A DNA stretch of 41,094 nt from NCBI GenBank assembly GCA_030606095.1, contig JAUWHC010000001.1, positions 1 to 41,094 of the forward strand, read 5' to 3'. The stretch is from Promethearchaeota archaeon (lineage in GTDB: Archaea; Asgardarchaeota; Lokiarchaeia; Sigyniarchaeales; SOKP01). Shown here one piece after another: positions 23-40,780 of the stretch; positions within the stretch are counted from its first letter, which is position 1; the number at the start of each line of letters is the position of its first letter. Both the position numbers and the translations under genes were made by a program. The notes beneath the pieces were generated by a model. It searched no databases and was not told where the DNA came from. It saw nothing but the letters and a program-made list of their open reading frames with translations.

Positions 23-124
23 GCTTCTGTAGTGTAGTACGGCCAAGCTTTCCTTAAAGGAAAGGGCTTCGCATGCTAGGCTTTCACCCTGGTGACCCGG
101 GTTCGAATCCCGGCAGAAGCACCA
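23..124 (+). tRNA. tRNA-Glu(UUC) with a ~24-nt non-canonical intron in the D-arm; CCA is encoded
   Basis: Acceptor stem gcttctg (23-29) pairs with cagaagc (114-120); discriminator a121 is followed by cca 122-124. Anticodon stem ctagg (76-80)/cctgg (88-92), loop ctttcac with ttc at 83-85. T arm ccggg-ttcgaat-cccgg (97-113). The D arm gtgt-agtacggccaa...gcat is split by 47-70 (gctttccttaaaggaaagggcttc, containing a ctttcc/ggaaag hairpin). Removing 24 nt leaves a 75-nt body, the normal size for archaeal tRNA-Glu. Confidence 0.85.
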
Positions 125-160: not shown

Positions 161-325
161 GCCTCGATAGCTCAGTTAGTGGGGGCATCAATTCGGTGTG
201 CTCGATAAAGTAGAGCGCTCGGCTAAAATTTGTGGGTTTTATCACAATTTCCGAAAGTTAACCGAATGGTCGCATGTTCGATCCATAAAACTCTTGAATT
301 CCAAGGTTTGGAAAAGCTCGGGGCG
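161..325 (+). tRNA. tRNA-Asn(GUU) interrupted by three introns (D-loop, anticodon loop 33/34, T-stem)
   Basis: Acceptor gcctcga (161-167) pairs with tcggggc (318-324, one G-U); discriminator g325. D stem gctc (170-173)/gagc (213-216) encloses 39 nt instead of 8-9. Anticodon stem ctcgg (218-222)/ccgaa (262-266) encloses ct + 32 nt (225-256) + gttaa, giving loop CUGUUAA. T stem gcatg (272-276), loop ttcgatc, then cat (284-286) and gc (316-317) separated by 29 nt (287-315). 165 nt minus about 91 nt of introns gives about 74 nt. A T-rich tract follows. Confidence 0.65.
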
Positions 326-343
326 CTTATTTTCTCTCTTTAT

Positions 344-499
344 TTACTTATATTTTAATTTTTTGATCTTATGAAGTTCTTCGAGATCTTTTTCACTTAA
401 GATGATATGCCTATCGTTATTTTCACCTGAGATGATAACAAATTCCTTATTTACAAAGTTTGCTAGATTCTTTCTAATATTTCGAGTAATCACTCCCAC
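344..499 (-). CDS. Small ORF (about 51 aa from GTG) resembling the C-terminal half of a winged-helix/HTH regulator; possibly a gene fragment
   Basis: My own translation: (IAES)VGVITRNIRKNLANFVNKEFVIISGENNDRHIILSEKDLEELHKIKKLKYK*. It has a recognition-helix-plus-wing pattern but lacks the N-terminal helices. It is too short to appear in the ORF track. Confidence 0.25.
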   Translation of the reverse strand: MGVITRNIRKNLANFVNKEFVIISGENNDRHIILSEKDLEELHKIKKLKYK

Positions 500-11019: not shown

Positions 11020-11185
11020 GCAGAGATAACCAAGCCAGGTCAAAGCAAGAATTATTTCTAAATAAGGAATAATAAAGCGGCAACCGGTGATGGACATTTT
11101 CAAAAACCATAATCTTTTGCGTTTTTGAACCACACTCAAGATCCATTGACATAGGTCTACAGGGGTTCAAATCCCCTTCTCTGCA
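11020..11185 (+). tRNA. tRNA-Leu(CAA) interrupted by two non-canonical introns (D-arm and anticodon stem/loop junction)
   Basis: Acceptor gcagaga (11020-26) pairs with tctctgc (11178-84); discriminator a11185. D arm is acc-aagccaggtcaaa, then a 41-nt insert (11045-11085), then ggt-g. Anticodon stem atgga (11090-94), then a ~40-nt insert (11095-11134), loop ctcaaga (caa at 11137-39), stem tccat (11142-46). Long variable arm tgacataggtctac; T arm agggg-ttcaaat-cccct. 166 minus 81 gives 85 nt, the class II tRNA size. A T-run follows. Confidence 0.8.

Positions 11186-37444: not shown

Positions 37445-40780
<3,336 letters not shown>

Follow-up and report, generated by a model that had tools for sequence, protein, structure and literature searches.

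tRNA genes that carry several introns, place them at non-canonical positions and depend on the splicing endonuclease EndA are an already known phenomenon. They were first catalogued in the Thermoproteales (Sugahara et al. 2007/2008, cited in PMC4090602), where up to three short introns are described per tRNA and where the junctions, of the bulge-helix-bulge (BHB), hBH or HBh' form, are cut by an (alpha-beta)2 EndA (PMC4090602). Several short non-canonical introns per tRNA gene, with BHB-like motifs, are also described for a eukaryote, the red alga Cyanidioschyzon merolae (PMC3728597). The closest described system is that of the Asgard archaea: according to Valentin-Alvarado et al. 2024 (PMC11291895), 92-95% of the tRNA genes of Atabeyarchaeia and Freyarchaeia contain introns, over half of them multiple ones. 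In this gene set the introns are often at non-canonical positions, many genes have three, and tRNAscan-SE under-predicted introns (PMC11291895). Furthermore, the survey of Kaneta et al. includes a Lokiarchaeota genome and notes incomplete tRNA sets in Asgard archaea (PMC5829648).

With regard to the enzyme, broad specificity is ascribed to the (alpha-beta)2 form with an L1 loop and to the epsilon2 form of ARMAN-2 (PMC5829648, PMC3239211). The HBh' junction, which has one well-formed bulge leading from the central helix to the intron helix, is cut by broad-specificity enzymes only (PMC5829648, PMC3239211), and the EndA of Asgard archaea is reported to be of the broad-specificity (alpha-beta)2 type with L1 loop (PMC5829648).

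Here we describe positions 161-325 of a contiguous stretch of 41,094 nucleotides (the window), which very probably constitute a functional Asgard tRNA-Asn(GUU) gene with three predicted protein-spliced introns at positions 18/19, 33/34 and 63/64. The window fits the intron-rich tRNA set of the Asgard archaea, in that its host belongs to this superphylum and all tRNA genes within the 41 kb are interrupted. As in Atabeyarchaeia and Freyarchaeia, Asn(GTT) adjoins Glu(TTC); the class is a different one (Promethearchaeota, to judge by the names of relatives), the order here is Glu followed by Asn, and tRNA-Asn contains three introns compared to two in the gene set of PMC11291895. That set lists coordinates; junction structures or an orthologue series were not found in it. 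The resemblance to the Thermoproteales lies in up to three short non-canonical introns per tRNA, but these hyperthermophiles belong to another superphylum (TACK), whereas the host of the window is an Asgard archaeon with about 29% G+C. Positions 18/19, 33/34 and 63/64 are absent from the Thermoproteales examples in PMC4090602, and we do not claim novelty for the positions. In contrast to the nuclear genes of C. merolae, some of which are permuted (PMC3728597), the exons in the window are collinear. Finally, the window junctions, known here from the tRNA gene sequence, share the HBh' form with the substrates of broad-specificity EndA.

A preliminary description of the window had presented the multi-intron gene as a find in an unexpected lineage. 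The gene is real; the lineage is less of a surprise, because the host is an Asgard archaeon and multi-intron tRNAs have already been published for this superphylum (PMC11291895). What is added is that the intron-rich Asgard tRNA repertoire now extends to a Promethearchaeota lineage, and that a single 74-nt tRNA provides three examples of relaxed HBh' junctions validated by orthologues.

Host and genomic context

Pfam scans of the open reading frames (ORFs) identify a Ras/Rab GTPase, a RING-finger protein, RPA, TFIIB, FtsZ, RIO1, NMD3, aRF1 and eIF2-beta, a housekeeping set as expected of an archaeon with eukaryote-like traits. The named relatives of the Ras protein come from Promethearchaeota, Lokiarchaeum ossiferum and Lokiarchaeia; current taxonomy places the Promethearchaeota, a phylum of Loki type, in the kingdom Promethearchaeati (Asgard). 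Together with the archaeal LSU rRNA gene, the Ras/Rab GTPase and RING-finger proteins and the names of these relatives identify the host as an Asgard archaeon. The LSU rRNA gene exceeds the archaeal model in length and hence contains large insertions. The 37 kb upstream of it are devoid of an SSU rRNA gene, which suggests that the rRNA genes are unlinked.

The approximately 95 bases on the 3' side of tRNA-Asn (326-420) are conserved in the metagenome-assembled genome (MAG) L003, a close relative, first identically and then with scattered substitutions. The pattern of these substitutions suggests a short minus-strand ORF at about 350-530, which falls below the cut-off of 80 amino acids for listed ORFs.

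Table 1. Features of the window, and tRNA-Asn introns at loci of relatives (handles beginning with L; intron sites in tRNA numbering). H, H helix; h', intron hairpin; a slash within a bulge marks the cut.
Feature	Position	Strand	Description
tRNA-Glu(UUC)	23-124	+	24-nt D-loop intron 47-70; H GGCC/GGCU, 4/4 pairs; hairpin 6-7 bp; CCA encoded
tRNA-Asn(GUU) gene	161..325	+	165 nt unspliced, 74 nt spliced; G1 = 161, discriminator G73 = 325
Exon 1	161..179	+	acceptor 5' strand GCCUCGA, U8 A9, D-stem 5' strand GCUC, D loop AGUUAG to G18
Intron 1	180..209	+	30 nt, D loop, position 18/19 (G18 / G19)
Intron 1, H	174-177 (AGUU) x 204-207 (GAUA)		3/4 pairs and A.A mismatch
Intron 1, bulges and h'	h' 181-186 x 198-203		5' bulge A178 G179/U180; 3' bulge A208 A209/G210
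Exon 2	210..224	+	G19 U20 A21, D-stem 3' strand GAGC, G26, anticodon-stem 5' strand CUCGG, C32 U33
Intron 2	225..256	+	32 nt, anticodon loop, position 33/34 (U33 / G34), non-canonical
Intron 2, H	219-222 (UCGG) x 251-254 (CCGA)		4/4 pairs (BHB scan, local folds)
Intron 2, bulges and h'	h' 226-234 x 243-250		5' bulge C223 U224/A225; 3' bulge A255 A256/G257
Exon 3	257..286	+	anticodon GUU, A37 A38, anticodon-stem 3' strand CCGAA, variable loop UGGUC, T-stem 5' strand GCAUG, T loop UUCGAUC, C61 A62 U63
Intron 3	287..315	+	29 nt, T-stem 3' strand, position 63/64 (U63 / G64)
Intron 3, H	281-284 (AUCC) x 310-313 (GGAA)		3/4 pairs and A.A mismatch
Intron 3, bulges and h'	h' 288-296 x 302-309		5' bulge A285 U286/A287; 3' bulge A314 A315/G316; h' contains CUUG-AAUUC-CAAG
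Exon 4	316..325	+	G64 C65, acceptor 3' strand UCGGGGC, discriminator G73
T-rich tract CTTATTTTCTCTCTTTATTT	326..345	+	abuts tRNA-Asn 3' end; read from sequence; identical in L003
tRNA-Leu(CAA)	11020-11185	+	insert of ~41 nt in D loop/D stem (~11045-11085); 40 nt at 32/33 (11096-11135)
tRNA-iMet(CAU)	27058-26952	-	initiator-type, 5' AGCGGGG; 31-nt T-loop intron 26996-26966 at 59/60; H UUCA/UGAG, 4/4 pairs
LSU rRNA	37447-40779	+	3333 nt; archaeal model 2987 nt
L024 tRNA-Asn introns			~23-26, 33/34, T loop
L030 tRNA-Asn introns			~23-26 and 37/38
L033 tRNA-Asn intron			one, 59/60
L034 tRNA-Asn intron			one, 38/39
L037 tRNA-Asn intron			one, 37/38

Gene layout and detection

The cloverleaf had been said to form only after the removal of three inserts, of ~30 nt in the D loop, 32 nt after position 33 and 29 nt in the 3' strand of the T stem. 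These sizes and places are exact on the sequence (Table 1), and it is the fully spliced 74-nt sequence alone that ARAGORN calls as tRNA-Asn(gtt), with no call on versions that retain any one, two or all three inserts. In its unspliced form the gene escapes ARAGORN as well as Rfam, the latter at the gathering threshold and even at E<=5, as had been expected of default finders. Splicing restores the canonical elements, i.e. G18G19, U33, the T loop UUCGAUC and the T stem. CCA is not encoded. The four exons are collinear and contiguous within 165 nt, which rules out a split or a permuted gene. The T-rich tract that follows it is likely to be an archaeal oligo-T terminator.

Two independent assemblies of the same species, one from JGI (L001) and one from Logan (L002), contain the identical 165 nt, which means that the gene is not an assembly artefact. 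This also bears on a sceptical explanation, namely that the cloverleaf is a product of chance, given three freely placed deletions, or of misassembly. ARAGORN is indeed lenient, as it still called some tRNA in 196 of 3000 versions of the 165 nt with three random deletions, although this control is a poor one, since most of the called products retain real tRNA parts, and we relied on orthologues and covariation instead. BHB-like pairs are likewise common when a single junction is considered. Against these points stand the identity of the two assemblies, the match of the spliced product to an uninterrupted orthologue in 66 of 74 positions, the covariation of the cloverleaf, and the conservation of the intron positions in syntenic relatives. 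With a probability close to nil, chance or artefact is effectively refuted as an explanation.

Orthologous loci and covariation

Syntenic loci were fetched via homologues of the adjacent Ras gene; the syntenic order is RPA, PfkB, a small ORF, SUI1, Ras and the tRNAs. In L028/L029, whose neighbouring Ras is 80% identical, tRNA-Asn is uninterrupted and is found by both ARAGORN and Rfam (66.3 bits). In the 66/74 alignment of the spliced window product with the L028 gene, the differences in the helices are paired changes or wobbles, and the junction AGTTAG/GTA corresponds to the uninterrupted D loop AGTTAGGTA of L028, L034 and L024. In L026/L027 (Ras 81% identical), tRNA-Asn contains three inserts at the same three positions, with lengths of 35, 30 and 30 nt. 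Between L026 and the window, the introns are 59-60% identical and the exons 87-95% (exon 1 18/19, exon 2 13/15, exon 3 27/30). L003 (GTDB MAG Promethearchaeota CSMAG_2412) shares its exons with the window at 100% identity; its intron 2 has 27 nt, i.e. five fewer, and is 62% identical, and the flanks are 82% identical over the aligned region.

After splicing of the seven orthologues, 99.3% of the cloverleaf cells in the alignment are paired and four pairs have changes in both partners; neither this percentage of pairing nor the covariation score was attained in any of 500 shuffles. The stem pairs formed by exon 2 covary with exon 3. Two-sided changes are seen at 6:67 and 7:66, which connect exon 1 with exon 4, and at 49:65, which connects exon 3 with exon 4. 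The sole unpaired cell is C27.A43 of the window, at the top of the anticodon stem; the mismatch is common to L003, and the other six aligned orthologues are paired there. Orthologues, covariation and the junction structures described below thus bear out the earlier claim of three introns in tRNA-Asn(GUU), none of them at 37/38.

The C27.A43 mismatch, along with the invisibility of the gene to default finders, is what could be cited in favor of a decaying pseudogene with insertions, the cell being served by a separate, intact tRNA-Asn. Such decay should leave relaxed exons and broken stems, and C27.A43 is the only pair found open. The exons of L003 have remained 100% identical against the divergence of intron 2 (62%) and of the flanks (82%), and the two-sided changes keep stems paired across exon boundaries. 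L026 preserves the three-insert layout and the junction helices despite intron divergence of about 40%. Relatives, too, give no sign of a second gene: the locus is the syntenic site of the only tRNA-Asn seen in relatives, the uninterrupted one included; a pattern derived from exon 3 matched one genome in the species collection, L003, at a single place; and the complete genome of Atabeyarchaeia-1 lists one Asn(GTT), which itself has two introns (PMC11291895). We therefore regard a pseudogene as very improbable and retain the functional tRNA-Asn gene as by far the likelier explanation.

A metagenome scan with the exon-3 pattern found only 20 uninterrupted tRNA-Asn genes of bacterial or phage type, on contigs with 39-49% G+C. 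Three further candidate loci were set aside because they are non-syntenic and have no tRNA-Asn nearby, i.e. L038 (from Lokiarchaeum ossiferum reads) and L039, both with a Ras identity of about 65%, and L040. L032 yielded no tRNA-Asn either. L036 (GCA_040961635.1, JBFOMZ010006090.1) was left out as its contig looks chimeric: within positions 1-300, an unrelated GC-rich stretch is fused directly to the 3' part of a tRNA-Asn, which probably reflects a chimeric contig of a public MAG.

Junction structure

In the standard archaeal BHB geometry, which was applied here, the cuts lie between the second and third bases of 3-nt bulges, and the intron hairpin h' stacks on the H helix. H consists of four exon nucleotides paired with four intron nucleotides, with two bases left between the exon strand and the 5' cut and likewise between the intron strand and the 3' cut. 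This cleavage register accommodates the canonical introns (37/38 and 38/39) found in L030, L034 and L037, and it is consistent with the description of a central helix that includes the first two anticodon bases (PMC4090602).

The earlier suggestion to fold the junctions in search of BHB-like motifs turned out well: a relaxed HBh' motif fits at all three, with intron 1 the weakest (Table 1). Each insert can also be folded into a hairpin of its own, as had been proposed, and intron 3 contains the predicted CTTG-AATTC-CAAG. The 3' bulge reads AA/G at all three introns, and the A.A mismatch in the H helices of introns 1 and 3 occupies the outer position. Because the outer helix is absent or offset at the junctions, they are classified as relaxed HBh'; at intron 1, the D stem lies directly outside H. 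In the BHB scan such pairs are frequent by chance if one junction is taken alone. Taken together, at least three H pairs and at least three h' pairs are present at 3/3 of the junctions defined by orthology, compared with 1.26% of arbitrary combinations of site and length in the region.

Comparison of the window, L003 and L026, which represent three independent sequences, reveals that the junction helices are kept while the introns drift, with substitutions in one partner of a pair or in both. In intron 1, the H and h' helices of L003 and L026 stay paired across A-to-G and U-to-C substitutions and the replacement of a G-C pair by U-A; the substitutions include G15-U to G-C and U16-A to U-G. In intron 2, U28-A is replaced by U-G and C-G among L003 and L026 (C28-G in L026), and the h' of L003 has a different sequence with the pairing retained. 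In L026, intron 3 (30 nt, 60% identical) has rebuilt its h' from other sequence, and U59-A has become U59-G.

These junctions are also the material on which to judge whether the inserts are removed or tolerated independently of EndA and BHB motifs, be it as self-splicing introns, as inserted repeats, or because the tRNA is joined from separately processed pieces. Such a proposal can draw on the imperfect motifs of introns 1 and 3, where three of four H pairs are formed, and on the fact that the motif of intron 1 is not the predicted minimum-energy fold. But the inserts, at 29-32 nt, are far below the size of group I or II introns, whose core comprises hundreds of nucleotides, and no Rfam match to these families appears even at E<=5. 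Neither the remainder of the window nor the fetched loci contain further copies of their sequences, so that a dispersed repeat is excluded for the DNA sampled; separately processed pieces are at odds with collinear, contiguous exons. The three junctions share one geometry and the AA/G 3' bulge, are kept by compensatory changes, and have the HBh' form that is a documented substrate of (alpha-beta)2 EndA (PMC4090602, PMC5829648). There is only a very slim chance that the inserts are handled in one of these other ways, and endonuclease-spliced introns remain our interpretation.

The exact ends of intron 1 deserve comment. Its BHB motif is absent from the local minimum-free-energy folds, and a stable pairing of 198-203 (GUGCUC) with 213-218 (GAGCGC) of exon 2 competes with it. 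Alternative boundaries were considered, e.g. 177/207, which would produce the D loop AGUUAAGUA; they were rejected, since uninterrupted orthologues read AGTTAGGTA, which fixes the ends at 179/180 and 209/210. For intron 3, a register shifted by one base offers a 4/4 helix (UCCA/UGGA); it was rejected because its product, CAUAAGC, does not correspond to the orthologous CATGC.

The pairing potential of intron 1 is an observation in its own right. Its 3' part (GGUGUGCUC) can pair with the GAGCGC of the following exon (positions 22-27), rivalling the BHB fold. A GGUGUGC that could pair in the same way is present in the D-region introns of three relatives, namely L026 and, with the intron at a different site (about 23-26), L024 and L030. 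A duplex of 12-13 bp between intron 1 (185-197) and exon 3 (261-273) in the full-length fold was considered as guide or chaperone pairing and dropped; the duplex energies are not better than those of dinucleotide shuffles (210/500 and 96/500).

Proposed splicing enzyme and mechanism

According to the proposed mechanism, EndA would cut the precursor at six sites. By analogy with the reports on Asgard archaea, this EndA would be of the (alpha-beta)2 form with an L1 loop, able to accept relaxed motifs. An RtcB-type ligase would presumably join the four exons, and the introns would be released, probably as circles. Each motif is local, with no overlap between them, so the introns need not be removed in any fixed order. 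Since CCA is not in the gene, it would have to be added post-transcriptionally. Pfam scans detected no EndA domain in the scanned ORFs of the window, and no EndA or ligase gene lies within it; the genome annotation of Atabeyarchaeia contains two K01170 endonuclease genes (supplement of PMC11291895). Reliance on a broad-specificity splicing endonuclease, as put forward in the preliminary description, seems reasonable in light of the Asgard literature.

Possible intron turnover at the locus

Among the syntenic species, whose Ras proteins are 74-87% identical, the number of tRNA-Asn introns ranges from 0 to 3 and about seven positions are occupied: 18/19, ~23-26, 33/34, 37/38, 38/39, 58-60 and 63/64 (Table 1). 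The exact ends of the ~23-26 intron of L024 and L030 are not fixed by the BHB rule. One explanation for this series, to which we assign about an even chance, is that Loki-type Asgard archaea gain, lose or relocate endonuclease-spliced introns very rapidly. If true, the locus provides a natural series of intron turnover in the archaeal lineage closest to eukaryotes. A literature search found no comparable single-locus intron series for Asgard archaea; the series of 0-3 introns at about seven positions may be the new part of the present results. The syntenic set can be used to study the gain and loss of tRNA introns and the range of EndA specificity. The orientation of tRNA-Asn relative to Ras and tRNA-Glu is inverted in some of the relatives.

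Other tRNA genes in the window

Within the 41 kb covered by the count, each of the four tRNA genes is interrupted, with seven inserts in total, none of which is at 37/38: tRNA-Glu has one, tRNA-Asn three, tRNA-Leu two and tRNA-iMet one. The statement that every other tRNA of the window is disrupted is hence correct, and the inserts of Glu, Leu and iMet all lie away from 37/38. Neither ARAGORN nor Rfam at its curated threshold recovers any of the four genes (0/4 each). For tRNA-Glu, Rfam sees the 3' part only, at 27.5 bits and under the threshold; tRNA-Leu(CAA) is undetected by both programs. It follows that annotations and completeness estimates for MAGs of Loki-type Asgard archaea under-count tRNAs, which is avoidable with BHB-aware tools and manual curation.

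The ends of the first insert of tRNA-Leu are not fixed by the BHB rule. The interruption at 59/60 is common to tRNA-iMet of the window and to the one-intron tRNA-Asn of L033. In L003 and L026, tRNA-Glu possesses an extra insert of 30 nt between variable loop and T stem that the copy in the window is without, so that an intron is present or absent among close relatives. At 118-138 on the plus strand, the tRNA-Glu 3' end ACCACCA can pair with a TGGTGG in the 36 nt that separate it from tRNA-Asn. This hairpin, which may be a processing signal or meaningless, is conserved in L003, with one pair altered to a wobble by a C-to-T substitution.
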